In this document: piece after piece, positions 2,124 through 18,890 of the stretch
Position numbering within the stretch: the first letter of the stretch is position 1
Layout of the letters: every line of letters begins with the position of its first letter
Origin: Candidatus Rifleibacteriota bacterium
Lineage (GTDB): Bacteria; Muiribacteriota; Ozemobacteria; Ozemobacterales; Ozemobacteraceae
DNA: 28,440 bases
Direction of reading: 5' to 3'
NCBI GenBank assembly: GCA_024710355.1
Contig: JANJUX010000012.1
Span: 64,001-92,440 of the forward strand
Position numbers and translations under genes: made by a program
The notes under the pieces: model-generated
Seen by the model: the letters and a program-made list of their open reading frames with translations, nothing else
What the model was told of the DNA's origin: nothing
Database searches by the model: none

Positions 2124-3143
2124 TCAGCTGTCTTTGCGGTTGAGAACGCACTGTGGGTCGTCGCCGAGCGGGTCGCCCGAAAGGGCCCGCGCCAGAGCCC
2201 GGCACCCAGGGCAGTCGTCGTATGGGCATGAGCCGCAGGCTATGCCATGCAGTTTTGGCCTTATGCGGCTGCATTCCCATTCTGCCAGCCGCAGTCTGAT
2301 TGCAGAGAATGGCTCATGCAGGATATTGCCGACCGGAATCTGCAGGCGGCGGCACGGAAAAACGGTGCCGTCTGGCATCAAAGCCATCGATTCATGCCCG
2401 AGATTGCATAAAGCGGCTTCAAGCATGTCTTCTGGTTCTGCTTTGCCATTGGTAACCAGGCCAAAAGCCCGGCATGCAGCCAGTTCGTCGGGGTCGATTT
2501 CGAGACCGGCAGCGGCGCCGATGCTTCTTATGGCTTTATACCAGTCATCTGCCGACAACAATGACTCTGAAATGTCCAGACCTGTGCCCAACGGTATGAA
2601 GCGCTCGAAGAGAATGTCGTCAGCGCCGGTTTCTCTGGCGAAGTCGACCGTTTCTTTTATCGTTTCACAGTTGAGGCGCGAGAGTGTCATCATCAGCGTC
2701 ACCGATTTGCCGGTGATTTCGCGGTAGAGTGGAATCGTGCGGCGCAGACCGCTCAATGAGCCGGTCCCGCGGATGAAATCGTTGATTTTTTCATCACCCG
2801 ATTCGAGAGAGATTCTGAATGATCGCAGACGCTGAAAACTGCCGAGTCTGGTCAAAAGCGCCCGGTCTTCGATGGTGCCGTTGGTGATGATATTTATTTC
2901 GGCGAGGTTTTCGTAGCTTTCAAGGTGAGCGATAAGGTCAGTCAGGTCAGGCAGAAGCAAGGGTTCGCCGCCGGTAAGATTGACGGTTACCGGTTCATTG
3001 GGGATCGCCGCCAGAACAGCATCTGCTGCCAGACGTCGTCTGTCTGCCCCGTCAGACAAACTCTCGCGTTCATGTGCATTTTGATAACAGTGCCGGCACC
3101 GGCGATTGCACAGATCGGTCAGATGCCACTGAAACCCAAACAT
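2124..3143 (-). CDS. Radical SAM enzyme with C-terminal SPASM/twitch-like Cys cluster (peptide-modifying maturase or anSME-like).
   Basis: N-terminal CNRRCRHC (Cx3Cx2C) at residues 12-19. C-terminal DGTVFPC and CGSCPYDDCPGC motifs are typical of SPASM auxiliary cluster ligands. The protein is 339 aa. The 20-nt gap to the peptidase gene contains an RBS, so the two are an operon. Confidence 0.85.
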   Translation of the reverse strand: MFGFQWHLTDLCNRRCRHCYQNAHERESLSDGADRRRLAADAVLAAIPNEPVTVNLTGGEPLLLPDLTDLIAHLESYENLAEINIITNGTIEDRALLTRLGSFQRLRSFRISLESGDEKINDFIRGTGSLSGLRRTIPLYREITGKSVTLMMTLSRLNCETIKETVDFARETGADDILFERFIPLGTGLDISESLLSADDWYKAIRSIGAAAGLEIDPDELAACRAFGLVTNGKAEPEDMLEAALCNLGHESMALMPDGTVFPCRRLQIPVGNILHEPFSAIRLRLAEWECSRIRPKLHGIACGSCPYDDCPGCRALARALSGDPLGDDPQCVLNRKDS

Positions 3144-3282: not shown

Positions 3283-4593
3283 TCAAGAATTATTGAGGTT
3301 TTCGGCAGCCTGCTTTTCTCTCTGGATACGGGCTCTGTTTGTCCAGGTGTGTGGCAGAAGCACGAGCATCAGCCAGCCGATCAGCATCAAAACGATAGCC
3401 AGACCAAATGCCGCCTGAAAAGCGGCTGTTTCTCTGGTGCCGTCAGGTGATACCCAGCCGATGATCAGGCCCATGACCCACATTCCGAGGCCGCCGCCGA
3501 CGAAACCGGTGAAATTGTAGACGCCGAGGGCGGTGCCGGCCATCGAGGCCGGAAAACACTCGCGTGCAATGCCGAAACTGATCGAAAAGAAGCCGGCGCA
3601 GAAACCCATAACCGCGAGCAGCGGAATCAGATAGCTCTGCATTGTTGAAGTGGCGAAAACCAGAGGTACCCAGCACAGCAGATAGCCGAACATTCCGGCT
3701 GTCAGAACCGTGTGGCGCCGCTGAACCGATTTCCCGGCCAGAATGCCGGAGACGATTGCCCCGAGCATCAGGCCAAGGGCAAGCCAGGTCAGGGCATAGC
3801 CGACCGATGTGTCTGGCATCTGATAGATGCGCTTGAGAAATGGGCCGGCCCAGAGGCCCTGAAAACTGATTATCGTGGTTTCGAAAGCGAAGAAGTAGAG
3901 AGTTACGGCCCAGAATCTTTTTGATTTGAGCATGCCGCGCAGGCCTGAACGCTCGCCCGGTTCCACTGTTTCGTCAGAGTCGTGGTGCTTTGCAGAACCG
4001 GCTTCTGGCCCACTTTCTTTTGGGCGTTCAGATTCTGGTGGCTGGTCTTTGACCACGAGCCAGACAAATATCACCAGAAGCAGGGTAATGACGCTGACGA
4101 GTTCCATCGTGGCCCGCCAGCCCCAGACGCTTTTTATTACAGCCAGCGGCCATGTCGAACTCAGTGCGCCAAGGTTGCCTACTGCCAGCATCATGCCGGT
4201 CATAAATACAAAAGATTCGCCGCCAAACCAGCAGCCCATAAGTCTGAGCGCCGGCACATAAACGCAGCCGACCCCGGCACCGACCAGCCAGCGCGATAGA
4301 ACCGCCGTTTCGAATGAAGCCGCCTTGCCGAAAGCAAAGGCGCCGAGGCTTGCCAGCAGCAGAAACAGTGATATGGTCTTGCGGGCACCCCAGCGGTCTG
4401 AAAGGATGCCGACCGGTATCTGTACCGTTGCATAGCCAAGCAGATACATCGATGAGAGAAAACCGAGTGCTGCCGGTTCAAGGCCAAGGTCGGCGGTGAG
4501 GTCGCCGGCCATTACCGCAGTGCAGAACCGATGAAACATGACAAAGAAATAGGCAATCGCCAGAACCCAGAATATGGCCCACTTTCTTGTCAT
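3283..4593 (-). CDS. Major facilitator superfamily transporter, 12-TM type.
   Basis: MFS motif A (GILSDRWGARKT), multiple hydrophobic helices and a central cytoplasmic loop rich in charged residues. RBS AAGGAAAG precedes the ATG. Confidence 0.85.
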   Translation of the reverse strand: MTRKWAIFWVLAIAYFFVMFHRFCTAVMAGDLTADLGLEPAALGFLSSMYLLGYATVQIPVGILSDRWGARKTISLFLLLASLGAFAFGKAASFETAVLSRWLVGAGVGCVYVPALRLMGCWFGGESFVFMTGMMLAVGNLGALSSTWPLAVIKSVWGWRATMELVSVITLLLVIFVWLVVKDQPPESERPKESGPEAGSAKHHDSDETVEPGERSGLRGMLKSKRFWAVTLYFFAFETTIISFQGLWAGPFLKRIYQMPDTSVGYALTWLALGLMLGAIVSGILAGKSVQRRHTVLTAGMFGYLLCWVPLVFATSTMQSYLIPLLAVMGFCAGFFSISFGIARECFPASMAGTALGVYNFTGFVGGGLGMWVMGLIIGWVSPDGTRETAAFQAAFGLAIVLMLIGWLMLVLLPHTWTNRARIQREKQAAENLNNS

Positions 4594-6651: not shown

Positions 6652-7224
6652 ATGAAAAATCGATCTGACAGAAGTTCTTTAACGGCCGCAAGTAGCGGTT
6701 TTACGGTATTGGAACTCGTGGTTGTCGTCGGCATAATGGCTCTGCTGGCGGCAATGGTATTCGGCATGTTTTCTACGACCAGTTCCAACCAGCAGAAGGT
6801 TTCGACCGACATGCAGATGCAGGCAATGATACTTAACTCGCAAAATCGCATCGTAAGAGCGGTCAGAGAAGGCATCGATTTTATTCTGCCCGAACTTGGT
6901 GAAGAGTCGGCTGCCCTCTTTTTTGCTGACAGTGAAAATAACATCAGGGTGCTCTATCAGCAGAAAGACGAAGAACTGTCAAAACGCACCGGCAAAACTT
7001 TGTACAAGCTCGTTCATCAAAAGGTTGAAACGAAAGGCTTTAATAGCAGCAGCCCGGCATCTGACCCGAAAATGTCGTCGACGGTTGCCGAGTATGTTAA
7101 AGACATCAAATTTCGCGTTTCAAGCGCCAATACGGTCAATGTTACCGCCAGTTTTGCGACCGAGCGCGCCGAATTTCAGACAATGTTCGAGATTGGCCTG
7201 CAGAATTCGGGAGTTGTTGAATGA
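6652..7224 (+). CDS. Prepilin-type N-terminal cleavage/methylation domain protein (pseudopilin / type IV pilin-like), 190 aa.
   Basis: Class III signal: charged leader, then G|FTVLELVVVVGIMALLAAMVF (G-F-T-x-x-E motif followed by a hydrophobic helix). Confidence 0.8.
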   Translation: MKNRSDRSSLTAASSGFTVLELVVVVGIMALLAAMVFGMFSTTSSNQQKVSTDMQMQAMILNSQNRIVRAVREGIDFILPELGEESAALFFADSENNIRVLYQQKDEELSKRTGKTLYKLVHQKVETKGFNSSSPASDPKMSSTVAEYVKDIKFRVSSANTVNVTASFATERAEFQTMFEIGLQNSGVVE

Positions 7225-8498
7225 ACCAGCGAGCAAACCGTGGTATGACACTGCTTGAACTGCTGATCGGCTTTTTTCTGCTGGTTTCGGCCTCGATTAT
7301 TTTTTTTCAGGCCATGCACAGCTTTAAAAAAGAAACCACCTTTACTTCGGAAAATTTCCTCGCGGCTTCTCTGACTGAAAAAGTGCTCGAGCAATGCTAC
7401 CAGGAGGCCGACCTGAACCCGCATGGCCTGCAGGCAATCGGTCTGGCCGATGCCGACGGCGCGCTCTACCCGTTTTCGACCTTTGTGACTGACAGAGAGA
7501 CAATTTTCTTTTCGAACCCGGGCATAACCGACACCGAAACCCCTAATCTACACAAGGTTCTCAAAGAAAATTTCAACCTCAAGGTGTCTGGTGAGAAGAA
7601 ACCCGGGTTTTATGAAATCAACGCCGGTTTTAACTGGAAAGCTGGTTCAGGCAAGGGCGGTTCGTTTGCCTCTACCCGTATTCTCTCGTTCACCGGCGAA
7701 AAGGAAGTGCTGACCACCTTCGCTTTGTCGGATACCGAGGTGAAAAACCGCCTGGTAAAAGATGTGTTCAACGCGCCCGGTGCCGCCCTCGGCAGCAAAG
7801 TCAGCAGTGCCGGTGCCGAAAAACTGCTGCTCAGCGTCGGGCATGTCTATTACACCTGCCTCGACTGGTTGAATTCTTCCGAGTTCAAAGACCGCTATCA
7901 GAAAGCCCGCAGCCTCGAAATTATTTCGTCACCTGCATCTGAAGACTATGCTGACTGCACCCGCATGTATTTTGAGCTCGCCAGAGACATGCTGCATCTT
8001 ATGATGAGTCTGAAAGGGCATGCAGAAGAGGCGGGCAAAGACATCAGCTTTCTTGCCGCCCTTCCGAAAACTGAGAAATACATCGTCGAGAGTCGTATCG
8101 AACGCGGTGGCCTGTTTTATCGCCAGCTGCGCCGTCTTTTCTTCAATTGCCTTTTCAGGGTTGCTGAGCGTTACGAGCAGCAGAGCAGGCATTCCGGGTC
8201 GCCAAAGCAACAGCGCCAGCTGATTGTGCGGCTGTTCAACATCAACCGGATTCTCTATGCCAATCGCAGCTTCAGCGATGAGGTTCCGGCAGCTGAGATC
8301 GAAAGCCGTTACCGCGATTTCATCACGAGAATGCAGACGGCGTTTCGTGATGCCGACCCTTCGATTTTTCGCCTTGCCGACCAGGAAAAGACGTTTATCA
8401 CCGCCGGCAATCTCAAAGACCGCTTTTTCATGTTGAAGTTGACCGGCGAGCTTTTTGCCACCATCGATAAATTTCTGACGGTTCTCGACCCGGCCTAA
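7221..8498 (+). CDS. Large prepilin-type N-terminal domain protein (minor pseudopilin-like), 425 aa.
   Basis: MNQRANRG|MTLLELLIGFFLLVSASIIFF matches the prepilin peptidase motif. Its start overlaps the upstream pseudopilin stop (ATGA), implying translational coupling. Confidence 0.75.
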   Translation: MNQRANRGMTLLELLIGFFLLVSASIIFFQAMHSFKKETTFTSENFLAASLTEKVLEQCYQEADLNPHGLQAIGLADADGALYPFSTFVTDRETIFFSNPGITDTETPNLHKVLKENFNLKVSGEKKPGFYEINAGFNWKAGSGKGGSFASTRILSFTGEKEVLTTFALSDTEVKNRLVKDVFNAPGAALGSKVSSAGAEKLLLSVGHVYYTCLDWLNSSEFKDRYQKARSLEIISSPASEDYADCTRMYFELARDMLHLMMSLKGHAEEAGKDISFLAALPKTEKYIVESRIERGGLFYRQLRRLFFNCLFRVAERYEQQSRHSGSPKQQRQLIVRLFNINRILYANRSFSDEVPAAEIESRYRDFITRMQTAFRDADPSIFRLADQEKTFITAGNLKDRFFMLKLTGELFATIDKFLTVLDPA

Positions 8499-8520
8499 AG
8501 GTTTTCTGCCAGACAAAAAT

Positions 8521-8547
8521 ACCCGGCCTTCACATTCCGGGCCGGGT
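8521..8547. terminator. GC-rich hairpin (ACCCGGCC / GGCCGGGT, 11-nt loop) between convergent genes. The T-tract is on the minus strand, so it most likely terminates the ALDH transcript.
   Basis: Perfect 8-bp stem. On the minus strand it is followed by ATTTTTG. The plus-strand tail is weak (TAAATAC). Confidence 0.45.
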
Positions 8548-8627
8548 TAAATACGCTTTAAGTGGCTGATGCGGTTATTTTCGCGTCAATACTTCACAGG
8601 ATGTCTTAAATGCGGCAATCAAGACGT

Positions 8628-11329: not shown

Positions 11330-11358
11330 TTGACAATTACAATTAAATTGAATACAAT
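11330..11358 (+). promoter_or_regulatory. Sigma70-type promoter TTGACA-N17-TACAAT driving the GPx-OhrR-rSAM operon.
   Basis: Exact -35 TTGACA at 11330-11335, a 17-nt spacer, and -10 TACAAT at 11353-11358. The ATG lies 30 nt downstream, with a TAAGGAG RBS. Confidence 0.6.
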
Positions 11359-11368
11359 TTAATTGTAA
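11337..11368 (+). promoter_or_regulatory. OhrR-type operator: perfect 14-bp inverted repeat TTACAATTAAATTG-AATA-CAATTTAATTGTAA overlapping the spacer and -10.
   Basis: I verified the inverted repeat by reverse complement. It closely resembles the AT-rich TACAATT-AATTGTA operators bound by OhrR in Bacillus (established knowledge). An OhrR homologue is encoded two genes downstream. Confidence 0.6.
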
Positions 11369-11387
11369 TAAATCGTAAGGAGCTGCT

Positions 11388-11957
11388 ATGAATATTTATG
11401 AATTCACGGTTAAAGATATACATGAAAACCCGGTATCGCTGCGTGACTATCAGGGGCGGGTGCTGCTGATTGTCAACACTGCCACCGGCTGCGGGCTGAC
11501 CCCGCAGTATGAAGGCCTTGAAAAGCTTTATAAAAAATATCATGACCAGGGATTCGAAATTCTCGATTTTCCGTGCAATCAGTTTCTTAACCAGGCTCCA
11601 GGCACCGGCGAAGAGATTGCCAGTTTCTGTCAGCTCAAATACGGCGTGTCGTTCCGCACTTTCGGTAAAGTCGAGGTAAATGGCGACAAAGCCGATCCGC
11701 TGTATGTTTACCTCAAACAGCAGGCGCCGGCCGATGTTGAAAATGCCGAGGCCGGAGCATTCAGGCAGATTCTTGTAAAACTCGCTCAGACGGTTGCCGG
11801 CAGCGGTATCAAATGGAACTTTACCAAATTTCTGATCGACCGCCAGGGCAGAGTGGTTACCCGGTTCGCTCCGACGGTTAAGCCCGAAGAACTTGAAGCT
11901 GCCATTGTTAAATTGCTGCCGCAGGAGAAAAAATGTGAAAAAGCCGGCGAAAGATAA
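11388..11957 (+). CDS. Glutathione peroxidase family (Cys-type, BtuE/Gpo-like).
   Basis: LLIVNTATGCGLTPQY ... FEILDFPCNQF ... FCQLKYGVSF ... VNGDKADPLY, which are canonical GPx blocks with the peroxidatic Cys. Confidence 0.9.
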   Translation: MNIYEFTVKDIHENPVSLRDYQGRVLLIVNTATGCGLTPQYEGLEKLYKKYHDQGFEILDFPCNQFLNQAPGTGEEIASFCQLKYGVSFRTFGKVEVNGDKADPLYVYLKQQAPADVENAEAGAFRQILVKLAQTVAGSGIKWNFTKFLIDRQGRVVTRFAPTVKPEELEAAIVKLLPQEKKCEKAGER

Positions 11958-12420
11958 ATTTGCCGCATTAAGGCTTGATAATCAGCTGTGTTTTCCGCTT
12001 TATGCTGCTTCGAGGCTGGTGATCAAACTTTATAAGCCTTTTCTGGATCGGCATGGGCTGACTTATACTCAGTATATTGCGATGATGGCACTCTGGGAAA
12101 AGGATAATGTCGCGGTAAACGAACTGGGAGAGCGCCTTTTTCTCGATTCCGGCACCCTGACGCCGCTTTTGAAAAAACTCGAAACTCTCGGTTTTATCAG
12201 AAGAGAGCGCGATGCCGCCGACGAACGCACAGTGCGCATTCAACTGACCGGCCAGGGAAAAATGCTGCAGAAAACCATGTGCGATGTTCCCAGGCAGATG
12301 GCCGCCTGCGTTCATCTCGGCAGAGAAGAAGCCGGCAACCTGCATGAACTTCTCCACAATCTCATCAGAAATCTGAGCAGCACTGACGGCCGCAAAAACA
12401 GCCGGCCCGGTATTTTCTGA
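11893..12420 (+). CDS. ohrR: MarR-family organic hydroperoxide resistance regulator OhrR (2-Cys type).
   Basis: LDNQLCFPLYAASR (reactive Cys), QYIAMMALWE, and LDSGTLTPLLKKLETLGFIRRERDAADER are strongly OhrR-like. The likely true start is the GTG at 11935, which has AGGAG upstream; the ATG at 11893 gives a 14-aa extension. The stop overlaps the next ATG (TGATG). Confidence 0.85.
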   Translation: MKLPLLNCCRRRKNVKKPAKDKFAALRLDNQLCFPLYAASRLVIKLYKPFLDRHGLTYTQYIAMMALWEKDNVAVNELGERLFLDSGTLTPLLKKLETLGFIRRERDAADERTVRIQLTGQGKMLQKTMCDVPRQMAACVHLGREEAGNLHELLHNLIRNLSSTDGRKNSRPGIF

Positions 12421-14054
12421 TGCGGGCGGCACTGATTTTTCCGCCACAGTGGGATCCGCGGCAGCCGCCGCTGGCGCCGTCAATTCTCGCTGGCACCATG
12501 CGACGTGCCGGTGCCGATACCCGGGTATTCGATCTGAATGTCGCTTTGTACCGCCATCTGCTTCTATCACACGAGCCAGGAGGAATCGGGAGTTTTCTGC
12601 TGCAGAAACTGCTCGATCCGAAGAATCTGGTCGATGTACAAAGCTATCTGCGTATCAGTCAGGAAGCCCAGAAAATTTTCGATTCAGAGTTCGATCCGGC
12701 AGGCCGGGCGCGCTTGTTCTGGGATGCCTGCGGCGGGCTGCCATCGGTTAGTTCTTCTGCAGGCTGGAAGATAGCTGCAGAGAAACCGGAAAAGCTGCCG
12801 TTCATCGGGCATCTTGGCAAAGAACTGGCCGAAATACTGAGCTGGTCATCCGACTTCATTGGTTTTTCGATAATATCAGATACGCAGTTGCCGGCAGCGT
12901 TGGCTCTGGCGGCATTTATGCGTAAACGTCTGCCGGCTGCGAAGATTGTTTTTGGTGGTGACGCTGTTACTTACCGGCGCCGCCTTCTCACTAGTCAGGG
13001 CTGGCTTGGCTCGATAATCGATGCGGTCTGTCTTGGTGATGGCGAGCCGTTTGTCACAGCCGCTGCCAAGGGCATGAGTCCTGCCGGTTCGCCGAATTCT
13101 TTGAGCTGGGAGGTTGCCGGGCGCAGCTGTGGCGTGCAACAGTCTCTGCATGATTTTTCAAATTCAAGCCCGGCCGAATTTTCGGCTCTGCCGCTGCATG
13201 ACTATCTGACTCCGCATCTGGTAATGCCGGTAGAAACAGCCAGGGGCTGCCCATGGGGCAGATGTGCATTCTGCATCCATCCTGTGCGGGCGGCGAGCGG
13301 CCGACCATTGTACCGGCCGCGTTCCATGGCTGCCGTCACCGAAGAAATTGAAACCCTTTTTGCGGCCGGGCATCGTCGGTTCTTTATTGTTGATGAAGCT
13401 TTGCCGCCTGCGCGTCTGCGTGAGCTGGCAGAAATTTTTGCCGCTCTGCCTGAACCGGTTTTCTGGATCGGTTATGCCCGCCTCGACGCCGGGCACACTC
13501 TTGAAGGCTTTTTGCGGGCCCGCGCTTCGGGGTGTCTGAAACTCTTTATTGGTCTTGAGACAGGATCAGATCGTATTCTTGCCAGATTCAACAAGGGTGT
13601 CGATCGGGCGCAGACCCGCCGGGTGCTGCTCGACGCTGCTGCTGCCGGCCTCGCGGTGCATACATTTCTGATGACCGGGTTTCCGGGCGAAGATGCGTCG
13701 GATCGGCAGGCGACCCTCGATCTGCTTGCCGATGTCTGGCCGGCCTTTGCCCCATTCGGAGTATCGTTCGATCTGTTCGCGCTGACCGGCGAACTCGAAA
13801 CTGAAATGGCTGCCGATCCAGCATCCTTCGGGTGGGAAGGCCCGAAATTTGACGGGCGTAACGATCTTGCCTGGCAGTTTCCGCTGCTTACGGGTCCAGC
13901 TGCGGCCGAAACGCTGGCCGAATTCAGAGCCAGCCTGCACAGCCTTGCCGACAGGGTTCTGGGCAGAGAGTTTGGTTTGCGTCACGCCGCCCTGGCCCAG
14001 GATTCCCTGCATCTGCTGCTGCTCGAAGCAAAAACCAGTCTGCGTCGGCCATAA
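12420..14054 (+). CDS. B12-binding-domain radical SAM protein (class B rSAM, methyltransferase-like), 544 aa.
   Basis: N-terminal Rossmann/B12-like region (KIVFGGDAVTY). The Cys cluster is ARGCPWGRCAFC, a CX4CX2C variant. The radical SAM core has IGLETGSDRILARFNKGVD and MTGFPGED, typical of the B12-binding rSAM family. Confidence 0.8.
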   Translation: MRAALIFPPQWDPRQPPLAPSILAGTMRRAGADTRVFDLNVALYRHLLLSHEPGGIGSFLLQKLLDPKNLVDVQSYLRISQEAQKIFDSEFDPAGRARLFWDACGGLPSVSSSAGWKIAAEKPEKLPFIGHLGKELAEILSWSSDFIGFSIISDTQLPAALALAAFMRKRLPAAKIVFGGDAVTYRRRLLTSQGWLGSIIDAVCLGDGEPFVTAAAKGMSPAGSPNSLSWEVAGRSCGVQQSLHDFSNSSPAEFSALPLHDYLTPHLVMPVETARGCPWGRCAFCIHPVRAASGRPLYRPRSMAAVTEEIETLFAAGHRRFFIVDEALPPARLRELAEIFAALPEPVFWIGYARLDAGHTLEGFLRARASGCLKLFIGLETGSDRILARFNKGVDRAQTRRVLLDAAAAGLAVHTFLMTGFPGEDASDRQATLDLLADVWPAFAPFGVSFDLFALTGELETEMAADPASFGWEGPKFDGRNDLAWQFPLLTGPAAAETLAEFRASLHSLADRVLGREFGLRHAALAQDSLHLLLLEAKTSLRRP

Positions 14055-14973: not shown

Positions 14974-15750
14974 TTACTCCTGATCGTTATAGGTTTTCCA
15001 ATATGGTTCCATGTCGATGCCGGCCGCTTTGCACGCAGATTCAAACACGTTCGCCTGGTCTCCGAGAACCATTTTTTCAATGATGGGGCCGGCTTCCATT
15101 GCGTTGGCGTCGGTTTCGTGGCCATTGGCGCGCCAGACCTGTTTGATCTGCTGTATGAGGGCGATTTTGCCGGCTTCGTCGAGGAGCTGCCAGTCGAAAA
15201 TATCTTTCGTCACAAGGTTTTTGACGTGCTCCTTGTCGAGTTTCGGGGCGTTGTCTGCCTTTTTGGCAGGTTCTGCCGCCGGTGCTTCAGAGCCTTCGAG
15301 CGGGTCGGTAATTGATTCGCAGATCATCGGGCCGGTACTGGCGTCATCGGCCGGCGAAATGCACATGAATACCGGTCCTGAGGGCTCTTTATATTTGAAC
15401 AGGATGCCTCTGGCATCGTCAGAAACCACGGTAGTCAGCGGCGATTGCAGCTGCAGGCCCTTGACCTGCCCAAAGCTCACCTGTGGCTGGCACACGGAAA
15501 ACACATTCGTGACCTTGTTATTTTCGTAGCCAAGCATTCCCATCATCAGAAAATCGGGAGAGTCTGAGATGAGCCAGGTGTCGAGCTCGCCTGCATCAGC
15601 TGGTTTGCCGAGCATTTTGTGAGCTTCTTCTCTGGAAACCCCAATAAAGCTGGTTTCGGTCCAGAATTTCGCCGTAATTGCTTCGGCACTGCCGGCTGCG
15701 ATAATTAACAGAACGAAGACGAGAATGATAATACTGTTGCGGTTTTTCAT
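14974..15750 (-). CDS. Hypothetical secreted protein (signal peptide, no known domain).
   Basis: MKNRNSIIILVFVLLIIAAGSAEA signal peptide. RBS AAGGAA. It lies 5 nt upstream of the LRR gene. Confidence 0.6.
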   Translation of the reverse strand: MKNRNSIIILVFVLLIIAAGSAEAITAKFWTETSFIGVSREEAHKMLGKPADAGELDTWLISDSPDFLMMGMLGYENNKVTNVFSVCQPQVSFGQVKGLQLQSPLTTVVSDDARGILFKYKEPSGPVFMCISPADDASTGPMICESITDPLEGSEAPAAEPAKKADNAPKLDKEHVKNLVTKDIFDWQLLDEAGKIALIQQIKQVWRANGHETDANAMEAGPIIEKMVLGDQANVFESACKAAGIDMEPYWKTYNDQE

Positions 15751-15755
15751 TGATT

Positions 15756-16400
15756 TTATTCCTTGTTATCTGTGGGAGTGGCTGATTCTGAGGCAACAGG
15801 TGTGGCTTCGTCGGCAACGATTTCGGTCGGAAGATATTCGACGAGAATGTGGCGTTCATCCTGAGCTTTGATCAAAGCTGAGAACTTACCGGCGACGCTT
15901 ACTTCTTCACCGGCTTTTTCCCATTCTGCGGGAGTTGCATGTACATCGGGCGTGCCACCTGAACCGGTGCTGTAAATGGTGCCGCTGGCTTTGAAGGTGT
16001 CACTGCCAATGTCTTCGAGCGTGTCGAGCTGTGAGAAAACAAACATATCGCCATCGGCAACCGGTATTGAATATAATTTTTCCTTGTGCTGCGAAGGCTT
16101 CTGCCCGAAGTATTTTATCGCTGCCGTGTCAACCTGCTCAGTGGTCGCCGTGACATAATACCCGTCTTTAGAGGGTTTCAGCGATTTGAATTTGTTGAGA
16201 TACAGGTGCCGAAGAGCAAAGTCGATCATCGCCTGGTCGGTCAACGCACCCTGCGAAAAGCTTGCCACATGGGCTTCAGAGAAGTTGCTGAAAAATACGT
16301 TCAGGTTCTTCTGCAGAGCCGGTTCGAGCTGCATCGGCTCTGCCAGACCCATCGAGGCCACGGTCATTATTACTGCCAGTAAAGTCAGGATTTTTCTCAT
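15756..16400 (-). CDS. Hypothetical secreted protein.
   Basis: MRKILTLLAVIMTVASMGLAEP signal peptide. RBS GGAGA. The gap to the next gene is 5 nt. Confidence 0.6.
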   Translation of the reverse strand: MRKILTLLAVIMTVASMGLAEPMQLEPALQKNLNVFFSNFSEAHVASFSQGALTDQAMIDFALRHLYLNKFKSLKPSKDGYYVTATTEQVDTAAIKYFGQKPSQHKEKLYSIPVADGDMFVFSQLDTLEDIGSDTFKASGTIYSTGSGGTPDVHATPAEWEKAGEEVSVAGKFSALIKAQDERHILVEYLPTEIVADEATPVASESATPTDNKE

Positions 16401-16438
16401 TGAATTCTCCGTTTCAGATCATACTGTAAAGGTTCTGA

Positions 16439-17008
16439 TCACTTCGCCGACAGCGGAACGATGGTGAAGGAATAGGCGGTATCTTCACCATCACCACCGG
16501 TTCGCAGCGTAAATTTCCAGCCCTGGTGTTCCCATACGGTGTTTTGGTAGCCTTCTTCTTTTTCGCCGTCTTTGCCGGCTCCGGCATTTTTTTCAAGCCA
16601 TGTCTGCAGTTCTTTGTTCGGAACTTCTTCGCCGTCGATGCAGATTTCGGCGATTTTACCGGCTTCGTCCCAGTCGATGATAAGGGCTACCGGAGCTGAT
16701 TCGGTTTCGATCTGGAAATCATACTGCAGTCTGCTCGCTTCTTCCATTTCGGCAGCTTCGCCGAGAATCGGCGTCAATTTGGCAGCCAGGTCATCGCGAG
16801 TGGCGTCTCTGCCGATGAAGACTTCGGTTCCCTTCAGCATCAGCGGAAATTCTGCCGTGGCGCTGGCGACATCAGCTGTGACTGCGGTTGTTGATGCAGT
16901 TTCTACTGCTGCGGCTGCGGCGGGTTTGACTTCGACTCCGGCAAAGCTCTGACAGGCTGCTGCCACGATGAATGCGAGAGCGACGGTTGTGAATCTGGTG
17001 TTGATCAT
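16439..17008 (-). CDS. Hypothetical secreted protein with an Ala/Thr-rich linker.
   Basis: MINTRFTTVALAFIVAAACQSFAG signal peptide. RBS TGGAGAAAAAAAT. Confidence 0.6.
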   Translation of the reverse strand: MINTRFTTVALAFIVAAACQSFAGVEVKPAAAAAVETASTTAVTADVASATAEFPLMLKGTEVFIGRDATRDDLAAKLTPILGEAAEMEEASRLQYDFQIETESAPVALIIDWDEAGKIAEICIDGEEVPNKELQTWLEKNAGAGKDGEKEEGYQNTVWEHQGWKFTLRTGGDGEDTAYSFTIVPLSAK

Positions 17009-17049
17009 ATTTTTTTCTCCATGTGAAATTTTGTCAGCTGTATCTGCTG

Positions 17050-17790
17050 TTATTGCTGCGCCGGGGTGAATTTGCCGCTGATCGCCATATAGCGGAAGTT
17101 CGGGCCTTCAAAGCCGGGGCTGGTGTAAGAAACGATCACGACAATGCCGTCTTTGCAGCTGGTTACCCGGCGAACCTGGTAAGAAAGCGGATAGGCGCGG
17201 CTTTTTGGCAGACGCTTGTCTTCCTGAAGAATCTGTATGGTCCCGGAAGCTTCTTCAAGACCGGCAATCGACAGTTTGAGCATTTTTGCCGGGCCAAAAT
17301 CAGTCGGCATATCTTTGATGGCAGGTGTTGTGTCAGTGGTTTCGAGCCTGACTTCATATTTTGCGGTGATACCTGAGGCTCCGCCATCGATGCCGGGCGT
17401 CAGAGAGAAAATATTGCCGGTAAATGGGCTGTGGTCGGTCGGCAGGTGTACCAGAAGGTCTGAACCCTGATTTTCATTGACTTTCAGTGCGAAGCGTTCG
17501 AGTCTGGCGGCTTCGATTGCTTTTTTGAGTGCCGGTTCGGCTGAGCCCGCCTCGATATCTTTGTCTTCGGTCAACTCGGTGGCGCTGGTGGCGACCTGCT
17601 CATTTTTCAGAACATCGATTACCCACAGTTCCGCATATGGAACCCCTGAGCCATCGTGGATACCCATCTGGGCAAAAGCGTAATACTGGCCTGATTGAGA
17701 GAAACCGAGCGGCCGGAATTCGGCAATATCGCCGGCCTGGCAGCTGGCAACAAAAAAGAACATGGCAAGGGTGACTAAAATGCGTTTCAT
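17050..17790 (-). CDS. Hypothetical secreted protein.
   Basis: MKRILVTLAMFFFVASCQAGD signal peptide. RBS AGGAGAAAATA precedes the Met at 17790. The track ORF extends to 17844 without an RBS. Confidence 0.6.
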   Translation of the reverse strand: MKRILVTLAMFFFVASCQAGDIAEFRPLGFSQSGQYYAFAQMGIHDGSGVPYAELWVIDVLKNEQVATSATELTEDKDIEAGSAEPALKKAIEAARLERFALKVNENQGSDLLVHLPTDHSPFTGNIFSLTPGIDGGASGITAKYEVRLETTDTTPAIKDMPTDFGPAKMLKLSIAGLEEASGTIQILQEDKRLPKSRAYPLSYQVRRVTSCKDGIVVIVSYTSPGFEGPNFRYMAISGKFTPAQQ

Positions 17791-17810
17791 TATTTTCTCC
17801 TGGGGTGTGA

Positions 17811-18500
17811 TTATTTTCCGGGTCTGAATTCGATCAGTCGGCAATTGACTTCGCTGGTGGTTCCCTGATGTGAATAGATGTAGCCGGTAAAACCGACGCC
17901 ATGGGTAAATTTCCAGGTGGTTGTGTCCGGGCCGGTAGACAGGCTGATCGAAACTTCGTCGGGAGTGCCGGTAAGCTTCAGACCTTTTACCGCTGCGGCA
18001 GAAAACGGTGTTTTGCCTTCAACCCGGTAAACATACATCGGAATGCCCGAAAGCAGCTGCGCAGTTTCGCCGAAGGTTTTTTCTTCTACCAGCGGAAAAT
18101 CGAGCAGCAGATCAGCTTCGGTAACCGATTCGCCCAGGCTCTCGCCGGTGATGGCCTTTTCCCAGACCTCTTTGATTCTCTCGTCGCCCTGAATCAGATA
18201 GAGCCGCCAGGGCCCGGCCAGAATCATCAGAAATGGTGACGGTTTTTTGCCTTTTTCATAAAAGGTCAGGTCGCTCGGCAGGCCAGAGCCTTTTGCAAAA
18301 GTAATGTTTTCCCAGGCGGTTACCGAGGTTATTTCGGTTGTCCAGGTGAGGGTTTCGCTCAGTTCTTTGCCTTCAGAATCGGCTTTGACGTCGGCGCTGT
18401 AGACCCATGCGGTGCCGGTTGCCAGCTGCAGCGGCAGGCTTTCGGCTGCCGTTACGGTGAGGGAAATAAGACAGAAAATGACAATAAGAGCGTGTTTCAT
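17811..18500 (-). CDS. Hypothetical secreted protein (first gene of the secreted-protein operon).
   Basis: MKHALIVIFCLISLTVTAAESL signal peptide begins at the internal Met at 18500, with AGGA upstream. The longer track ORF (to 18713) has no signal-peptide logic. Confidence 0.6.
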   Translation of the reverse strand: MKHALIVIFCLISLTVTAAESLPLQLATGTAWVYSADVKADSEGKELSETLTWTTEITSVTAWENITFAKGSGLPSDLTFYEKGKKPSPFLMILAGPWRLYLIQGDERIKEVWEKAITGESLGESVTEADLLLDFPLVEEKTFGETAQLLSGIPMYVYRVEGKTPFSAAAVKGLKLTGTPDEVSISLSTGPDTTTWKFTHGVGFTGYIYSHQGTTSEVNCRLIEFRPGK

Positions 18501-18890
18501 AGGTTTAATCCTGCTTTTGGAGTAATTGTCCTGGCGGTGTCCTGCTAAAAACCGGAAAACTGGCTGGTTTATTTTGTGTACCCTCTGATCCTCTCTAAGA
18601 TTATGAAAAATATCACAAACTTCGCAAAGGTTCAAGTTTTTGCTCTTTGACTTTTCAAAGCCAGTTCTGATGCGAATCGGAGCGGTCGATTTTTCGTGTA
18701 AAGCTCGTTGCAAAGCTTGGTCAGGCGCAGCGGCAATTTATGTCATGGTTAAGGGTGGCCCGGCGCTCTGTGCGTAAAAATCAGTTGGTGAATCATTGCC
18801 GATCTGATAGACTCAGGTTTCACATACGGGGCTGTAATTGCCTGGATTTTTTGTGGGAACCTGTATTTTCGAACAAAAGGGGACATAAAG

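Follow-up and report, generated by a model that had tools for sequence, protein, structure and literature searches.

In the 28,440-nucleotide (nt) stretch of Candidatus Rifleibacteriota DNA considered here (contig JANJUX010000012.1, positions 64,001 to 92,440; the whole stretch is referred to as the window), a gene for a glutathione peroxidase family enzyme (gpx), a gene for the organic hydroperoxide-sensing repressor OhrR (ohrR), and a gene for an orphan radical S-adenosylmethionine (SAM) enzyme (rSAM) are all co-oriented, with zero intergenic DNA. The stop codon of ohrR (TGA, 12418-12420) and the start codon of rSAM (ATG, 12420-12422) even have one A in common (TTCTGATGCGG). A preliminary description of this DNA had read the arrangement as a peroxide-stress operon with a translationally coupled rSAM, suggestive of a repair or modification function under oxidative stress or of a different inducer for this OhrR. 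Comparison with related loci points instead to two evolutionarily independent units, gpx-ohrR (11330-12420) and the rSAM gene (12390-14054), the join of which is a by-product of rearrangement and not a conserved functional partnership; a probability of about 0.7 is assigned to this reading. The sequence features as such were all confirmed in place, namely the three open reading frames (ORFs), the TGATG overlap, and a CX4CX2C motif in rSAM. The ORF limits held as well, except for the ohrR start, for which GTG at 11935 is likelier than the TTG at 11893 of the ORF list because an AGGAGA Shine-Dalgarno sequence occurs 5 nt upstream. With the GTG start, gpx and ohrR overlap by 23 nt, and this overlap is identical in all six cassette-bearing genomes. 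Both genes have strong Shine-Dalgarno sequences; a recognizable one was not found at the rSAM start, neither in the window nor in the relatives that possess a spacer.

The history of the ohrR-rSAM junction can be followed in related loci. The distance from the ohrR stop codon to the rSAM ATG is 305 nt in locus L024, 141 nt in L001, 84 nt in L019, 0 nt in L062, and -1 nt in both L063 and the window. In L024, L001, and L019, ohrR ends on a TGA after ...S-x-T-D/G, which is followed by the non-conserved spacer, and homology comes back some 30 nt ahead of the rSAM start codon. The window, L063 (94% identity), and L062 (92%) are without that stop codon and spacer, and their ohrR frame crosses the rSAM leader. 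The deletion junction lies at approximately 12389/12390; the last ten codons of ohrR (GRKNSRPGIF) are former rSAM leader and the frame stops at the TGA beside the rSAM ATG. Loci L060 and L061, with a 91%-identical rSAM, display the same 30-nt leader and the same TGATG behind type I restriction-modification genes, without gpx-ohrR. There, genes for N6_Mtase, RhuM, and Methylase_S as well as an AAA_15 fragment (L060, 1-3932, and L061) occupy the gpx-ohrR position, homology to the window does not start until about 30 nt ahead of the start codon of rSAM, and an ORF of 77 amino acids (aa) reads through the same leader to the same TGA. As the TGA stands beside the ATG behind unrelated genes too, it belongs to rSAM's own leader. 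The stop-start overlap is therefore a by-product of a deletion. In the proposed course of events, a gpx-ohrR cassette together with a hypothetical gene would have been inserted between an aldehyde dehydrogenase gene and rSAM in one genus-level clade. A later deletion in the sub-clade of the window would have taken the stop codon of ohrR along with the spacer, leaving OhrR with ten additional residues and an end on the TGA at the rSAM start.

The linkage is not conserved. The rSAM family was scanned with one genome per species, giving 26 loci with full-length members, a more distant subgroup of 35-41% identity included. When searched with the window proteins by tblastn, gpx and ohrR were retrieved upstream of rSAM in three of these species-representative loci only (L001, L019, and L024; 82-86% identity), whereas the other 23 full-length members, among them all other Riflebacteria sampled, lacked a gpx-ohrR linkage. 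Non-conservation of the locus, which the preliminary description had named as a possible outcome speaking against it, is thus what was found. Neither clustering of the ORFs in 27 loci nor Pfam annotation of the neighbours revealed a rSAM partner conserved across the family; elsewhere, the neighbours encode an MFS transporter, a HAD hydrolase, a DUF362 ferredoxin, Smr, HD-GYP, RecQ, ABC transporters, Fic, and arginine decarboxylase. The order MFS-rSAM-HAD/DUF362 was repeated in a few Rifleibacterium-like genomes only, and most genomes have rSAM as a stand-alone gene. The aldehyde dehydrogenase gene is located 2.2 kb upstream of rSAM in the window. It abuts rSAM directly and divergently in L018 and L026, which suggests that the cassette and the hypothetical gene were inserted between the two. 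The functional meaning that had been attached to the coupling does not survive a linkage confined to one narrow clade, an overlap arising from deletion, and unrelated genes upstream of a 91%-identical rSAM.

Of the OhrR-repressed gpx-ohrR-rSAM transcript proposed earlier, the co-transcription is plausible in this genome, but it does not count as evidence of a functional link. A consensus scan found no plus-strand promoter-like site in 11400-12420. Terminator-like sites were absent from ohrR and from the ohrR/rSAM junction, the single match being inside gpx and at the level of shuffled sequence. An internal promoter or terminator splitting rSAM from ohrR, which the preliminary description had allowed for, was hence not detected by sequence scanning. 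Furthermore, the RNA fold at the junction is not unusually stable (z = -0.75 versus shuffled sequence), Rfam at the gathering threshold gave zero matches in the window, L001, L018, L019, and L024, and the promoter and terminator scan of the relatives' ohrR-rSAM spacers gave weak, chance-level matches only. Because only about 30 nt of ancestral upstream DNA are left, in which neither a promoter nor a terminator of its own would fit, rSAM probably owes its transcription in this genome to read-through that starts at the predicted OhrR-controlled promoter. If so, rSAM would be peroxide-inducible in this sub-lineage, which would say nothing reliable about the function of the enzyme. Alternatively, rSAM may be served by an independent promoter in the 3' part of ohrR, the overlap then being without regulatory meaning. 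Indeed, promoters must exist near rSAM in the relatives with spacers of 84-305 nt and in the loci where the aldehyde dehydrogenase gene and rSAM are arranged divergently, and a TTGCAG-18-TATAAA-like element can be read from the alignment in the L019 spacer. However, the ancestral upstream sequence kept in the window could not accommodate both a -35/-10 pair and a 5' untranslated region and the scan of 11400-12420 was empty, making such a promoter unlikely.

An adaptive capture of rSAM by the OhrR regulon deserves little credence as well. It would imply that the cell benefits from rSAM being made under organic hydroperoxide stress, perhaps to replace oxidatively inactivated enzyme or to repair or modify a peroxide-damaged lipid, cofactor, or protein. 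The adjacency was held in six sequences of the clade, with spacers from 305 nt down to 0/-1, and the stop-start overlap could drive translation of an ATG that no Shine-Dalgarno sequence precedes. Yet the other 23 full-length members of the family lack the linkage, the 91%-identical rSAM has the same 30-nt leader behind restriction-modification genes, and nothing ties the rSAM fold to peroxide chemistry. In addition, an exact OhrR box was present in only two of the 67 loci examined (L001 and L019), both times upstream of gpx, and next to none of the cassette-less rSAM genes among those loci. A broader version is given an equally small chance; in this version, the deletion may have put an oxygen-labile Fe-S/B12-type enzyme under organic hydroperoxide control, the enzyme being selectively kept and replenished or deployed during lipid peroxide stress, and, separately, the CX4CX2C family, mostly of Riflebacteria, may perform an undescribed reaction on a housekeeping substrate. 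That rSAM is a maturase of ribosomally synthesized and post-translationally modified peptides (RiPPs) or a natural product-tailoring enzyme, with its neighbours forming a biosynthetic cluster, is very improbable. Although the model for RiPP-maturation rSAM C-methyltransferases (TIGR03975) was among the two best NCBIfam matches (residues 4-438; 85 versus a cutoff of 282 bits), an adjoining precursor-like ORF, transporter, or tailoring gene is not conserved, the neighbours differ in almost every genome, and the sampled TIGR03975-like relatives carry a CX7CX2C motif instead. Several points weigh against the reading of two independent units joined by rearrangement. The direction of the events, insertion followed by deletion as opposed to loss elsewhere, was derived from a small number of loci and without reference to a species tree. 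The cassette has stayed beside rSAM through approximately 15-18% protein divergence, with a shorter spacer in some lineages, and selection for co-expression could produce the same picture. A weak promoter inside ohrR is possible despite the consensus scan, and termination-reinitiation coupling may matter functionally in the sub-clade, given a rSAM start without Shine-Dalgarno sequence. Finally, the Pfam B12-binding match of rSAM is marginal and its structural neighbour AprD4 reportedly does without cobalamin.

The gpx-ohrR unit, in turn, is a self-contained, presumably autoregulated organic hydroperoxide response module of the already known OhrR/OspR kind. A perfect 15-nt inverted repeat (ATTACAATTAAATTG/CAATTTAATTGTAAT; 11336-11369) overlaps the gpx promoter. 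The predicted operator contained in it overlaps the promoter spacer and the -10 element (Table 1) and possesses the AT-rich inverted repeat with AATT-N-AATT core over the target promoter that characterizes OhrR sites. The OhrR-box pattern TACAATTNAATTGTA matched twice in tandem at this place and nowhere else in the 28 kb, with 0.08 matches expected by chance. Moreover, 28 of the 30 bases of the 30-mer at 11338-11367 match the ohrA operator of Bacillus subtilis, quoted as TACAATTAAATTGTATACAATTAAATTGTA (PMC2651793). The promoter is 100% conserved in L001, L019, and L024, in which the flank just upstream is unalignable; the operator segment is invariant in the window and these three loci despite the diverging flank, a pattern that reads as a phylogenetic footprint. 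The gene order and regulation have a precedent in the gpx-ospR operon of Pseudomonas aeruginosa (PA2826-PA2825), which is controlled by the OhrR homologue OspR and provides an organic hydroperoxide-specific response (PMC4999210). Both the invariant 23-nt overlap in six genomes and the predicted operator upstream of gpx place the window's pair among operons of this type. Similarly, a metagenomic contig (L070) contains an independent pair of gpx (74%) and ohrR (60%), in which a palindromic box likewise comes after a TTGACA and rSAM is absent, and ohrR adjoins gpx in a Lachnospiraceae genome (L065). The preliminary description had considered gpx an unusual target, as OhrR usually controls ohr; this view cannot be maintained in the light of the experimentally characterized gpx-ospR operon and these further pairs. 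Mechanistically, a reduced OhrR dimer on the tandem TACAATT-N-AATTGTA boxes over the gpx -10 region would repress the module, and oxidation of Cys19 by organic hydroperoxide would release OhrR. The GPx family peroxidase and more OhrR would then be produced from one transcript, translationally coupled through the 23-nt overlap.

Table 1. Features of the gpx-ohrR-rSAM locus (window coordinates).
Feature	Position	Strand	Details
sigma-70-like promoter of gpx-ohrR, TTGACA-17-TACAAT	11330..11358	+	11/12 consensus positions
Predicted OhrR operator TACAATTAAATTGAATACAATTTAATTGTA	11338..11367		two tandem palindromic boxes within the perfect 15-nt inverted repeat 11336-11369
gpx Shine-Dalgarno sequence AAGGAG	11377..11382	+	read from sequence
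gpx	11388..11957	+	189 aa; Pfam GSHPx, E 1.7e-39
ohrR	11935..12420	+	161 aa, GTG start; MarR family organic hydroperoxide sensor-repressor
rSAM leader CAAAAACAGCCGGCCCGGTATTTTCTG	12390..12419	+	about 30 nt conserved, now within the ohrR frame; homology to L019/L024 and to cassette-less L060 restarts here
Orphan rSAM with N-terminal B12-type Rossmann domain	12420..14054	+	544 aa
CX4CX2C [4Fe-4S]-binding motif (in GCPWGRCAFC)	13248..13274	+	C277, C282, C285; invariant in 24 aligned family members

The regulator is, judged by its sequence matches, a genuine OhrR-type protein with a predicted operator on the gpx promoter. It matched Pfam MarR and SarA/Rot as well as NCBIfam OhrR (E 1.2e-46), and its closest solved structures are OhrR of B. 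subtilis (1z91; E 5.6e-35) and of Xanthomonas (2pfb; E 2.5e-32). Cys19, located in LDNQLCFPLY, aligns with the sensing Cys C22 of Xanthomonas OhrR (2pfb), so that the N-terminal sensing Cys within the (L/E)NQLCF motif is present. Cys125 is one residue off the position of Xanthomonas C127, and a Cys116 is also present; the C-terminal Cys125 suggests membership of the two-Cys OhrR subfamily. The cutoff of the OhrR equivalog NF052638 was not reached (158 versus 200 bits); as the model name TransRegOhrRVib points to Vibrio sequences as its basis and the phylum considered here is distant, this shortfall says little against the protein being an OhrR. OhrR orthologues with at least 88% identity were confined to this clade and the next matches, of which the named ones are mostly from Clostridia, had at most 66% identity; this gap is consistent with lateral acquisition. 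The case for transfer rests on this gap and not on base composition, the GC content and the GC content at third codon positions (GC3) of the cassette being within the range of the window. It is less clear for gpx, since a gpx of 73% identity occurs at another location in other Riflebacteria.

The gpx product matched Pfam GSHPx over its full length (134 bits) and possesses the WNF motif. Its score with the NCBIfam BtuE-type model (195 bits) was below the BtuE equivalog cutoff of 270. Alignment with yeast Gpx3/Hyr1 (3cmi) showed both the peroxidatic Cys35 and the resolving Cys81 to be kept. Hence, the GSHPx domain carries a peroxidatic Cys instead of selenocysteine and a resolving Cys in the Cys block, and, because of these two conserved residues, the enzyme is probably of the Cys-type, thioredoxin-dependent BtuE/Gpx3 kind. 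Another gpx, 73% identical, was found in a Riflebacteria locus from the same assembly as L004 (L069, 4001-4558), without adjoining ohrR. A B12-type radical SAM gene occurs about 2.9 kb away from it (7428-8558); its product is different from the window rSAM (22% identity, canonical CX3CX2C) and an opposite-strand gene lies between, so that this proximity is probably a coincidence.

The rSAM protein has a class B architecture outside every characterized subfamily. It combines a three-Cys radical SAM core (Pfam Radical_SAM PF04055, 52 bits) with an N-terminal Rossmann-like cobalamin-binding domain (B12-binding, a marginal 32.6 versus a cutoff of 32.1 bits), and its AlphaFold2 model has a mean pLDDT of 92. 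Its cobalamin use and chemistry are putative. AprD4 has the same B12-type domain and is reportedly not cobalamin-dependent, and the presence of the domain is therefore no proof of cobalamin use. Alignment of the family revealed as invariant an N-terminal FPPQWDPRxP and ETxRxCxWxxCxFC. It also displayed an xDE motif, S150-x3-D154 and then G179-G180 as a signature of the B12-binding type, and, towards the C-terminus, a conserved DSLHLLL. Curated subfamilies considered for comparison were PhpK (TIGR04479), the RiPP C-methyltransferases (TIGR03975), HpnJ, MgmA (TIGR04014), HpnR, and BchE. All of the best NCBIfam scores were below cutoff, namely 86 of 600 bits for PhpK, 85 of 282 for TIGR03975, and 65 of 578 and 56 of 360 for others. 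No characterized family joins rSAM, the housekeeping methyltransferase families contemplated in the preliminary description included.

The CX4CX2C spacing, as opposed to CX3CX2C, is indeed present, as had been described, but it is not novel. It is family-wide in this branch of B12-type rSAM enzymes, is common to rSAM and OxsB in the HMMER alignment, has been stated for OxsB, a cobalamin enzyme of solved structure (PMC9204698), and is listed by RadicalSAM.org for one megacluster (PMC9477430). Most of the distant homologues of about 700 aa also have CX4CX2C, the TIGR03975-like ones having CX7CX2C. Homologues aligning end to end with rSAM (34-100% identity) form about 70 clusters at 90% identity, and those with a name are almost all from Riflebacteria/Ozemobacteraceae; scattered carriers from outside the Riflebacteria are L021, L022, and L025. 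In an exhaustive profile search, about 12-17 representatives at 50% identity matched the family end to end at high score, behind which stands a large and more distantly related superfamily, with 4070 proteins at E <=1e-30. The family profile also matched proteins of 1000-2700 aa (P0347, P0348, P0350, and others) in four to eight separate stretches each; these look like several B12-rSAM modules fused in tandem.

Several other genes of the window have counterparts in the loci compared. The MFS gene at 3283-4593 (minus strand) is 74% identical to the one that directly precedes, in the same orientation, the rSAM orthologue in L009, L010, L013, and L015. In the window, it lies 7.8 kb from rSAM on the opposite strand and may be what is left of a former adjacency of MFS and rSAM genes. 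It is adjoined by a gene (2124-3143, minus strand) for another, unrelated radical SAM protein that carries a SPASM domain and the ORF of which overlaps the predicted start of an S9 peptidase ORF (184-2280). A block of five hypothetical genes, one with DUF2259 (14974-18713, minus strand), is kept as a unit in L002, L004, and L060; it occurs on differing sides of rSAM between genomes, illustrating heavy rearrangement of the region. Finally, two overlapping hypothetical genes (6652-7224 and 7221-8498, plus strand) encode N-termini that resemble signal sequences of the prepilin or pseudopilin kind (GFTVLELVVV... and RGMTLLELLIGFF...), and this pair (6652-8498) is conserved in L001, L007, and L019.

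The present analysis adds to the record, for the little-known candidate phylum Riflebacteria, a gpx module under predicted OhrR control whose operator is close to that of Bacillus. It also brings to notice an orphan family of B12-type rSAM enzymes that is small and well conserved, has the OxsB-like CX4CX2C, and is one of many uncharacterized ones. It also calls for caution, as a stop-start overlap that looks like a functional operon goes back, according to the relatives, to a recent insertion followed by a deletion; the locus could also illustrate, as a small natural case, how spacer loss draws a gene into an operon.

As to known systems, those closest to rSAM are OxsB, TsrM, MgmA, TokK, CysS, and AprD4, radical SAM enzymes that have a B12-type Rossmann domain at the N-terminus. 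These neighbours catalyze methylation, ring contraction, and dehydration and, as they span several chemistries, a reaction cannot be transferred from them to rSAM. The window rSAM differs from all six by an identity of only 12-21%, a helical insertion in the N-terminal domain (approximately residues 39-131), and a distinct conserved C-terminal region (GLRHAxLAQDSLHLLLLE). The gpx product has the GSHPx fold of yeast Gpx3/Hyr1 and Escherichia coli BtuE-type enzymes, and both Cys residues are shared as well, the peroxidatic one within TGCG and the resolving one within FCQLKYGV; an insertion of about 25 residues (approximately 114-138) sets it apart from Gpx3. OhrR/ohrA of B. subtilis provides both the best solved-structure match and the operator with the 28 identical bases; in contrast, the peroxidase controlled in the window belongs to the GPx family and not to OsmC/Ohr, and B. 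subtilis OhrR is of the one-Cys type, whereas the window OhrR has Cys116 and Cys125 in addition. The gpx-ospR operon of P. aeruginosa is alike in having gpx first, followed by a co-transcribed gene for an OhrR family repressor, and an AATT-N-AATT operator core on the gpx promoter. It differs in its proposed operator, AATTCAA-N-TTGAATT versus the B. subtilis-type TACAATT-N-AATTGTA of the window, and in the third gene, rSAM, that is fused downstream in the window's sub-lineage.

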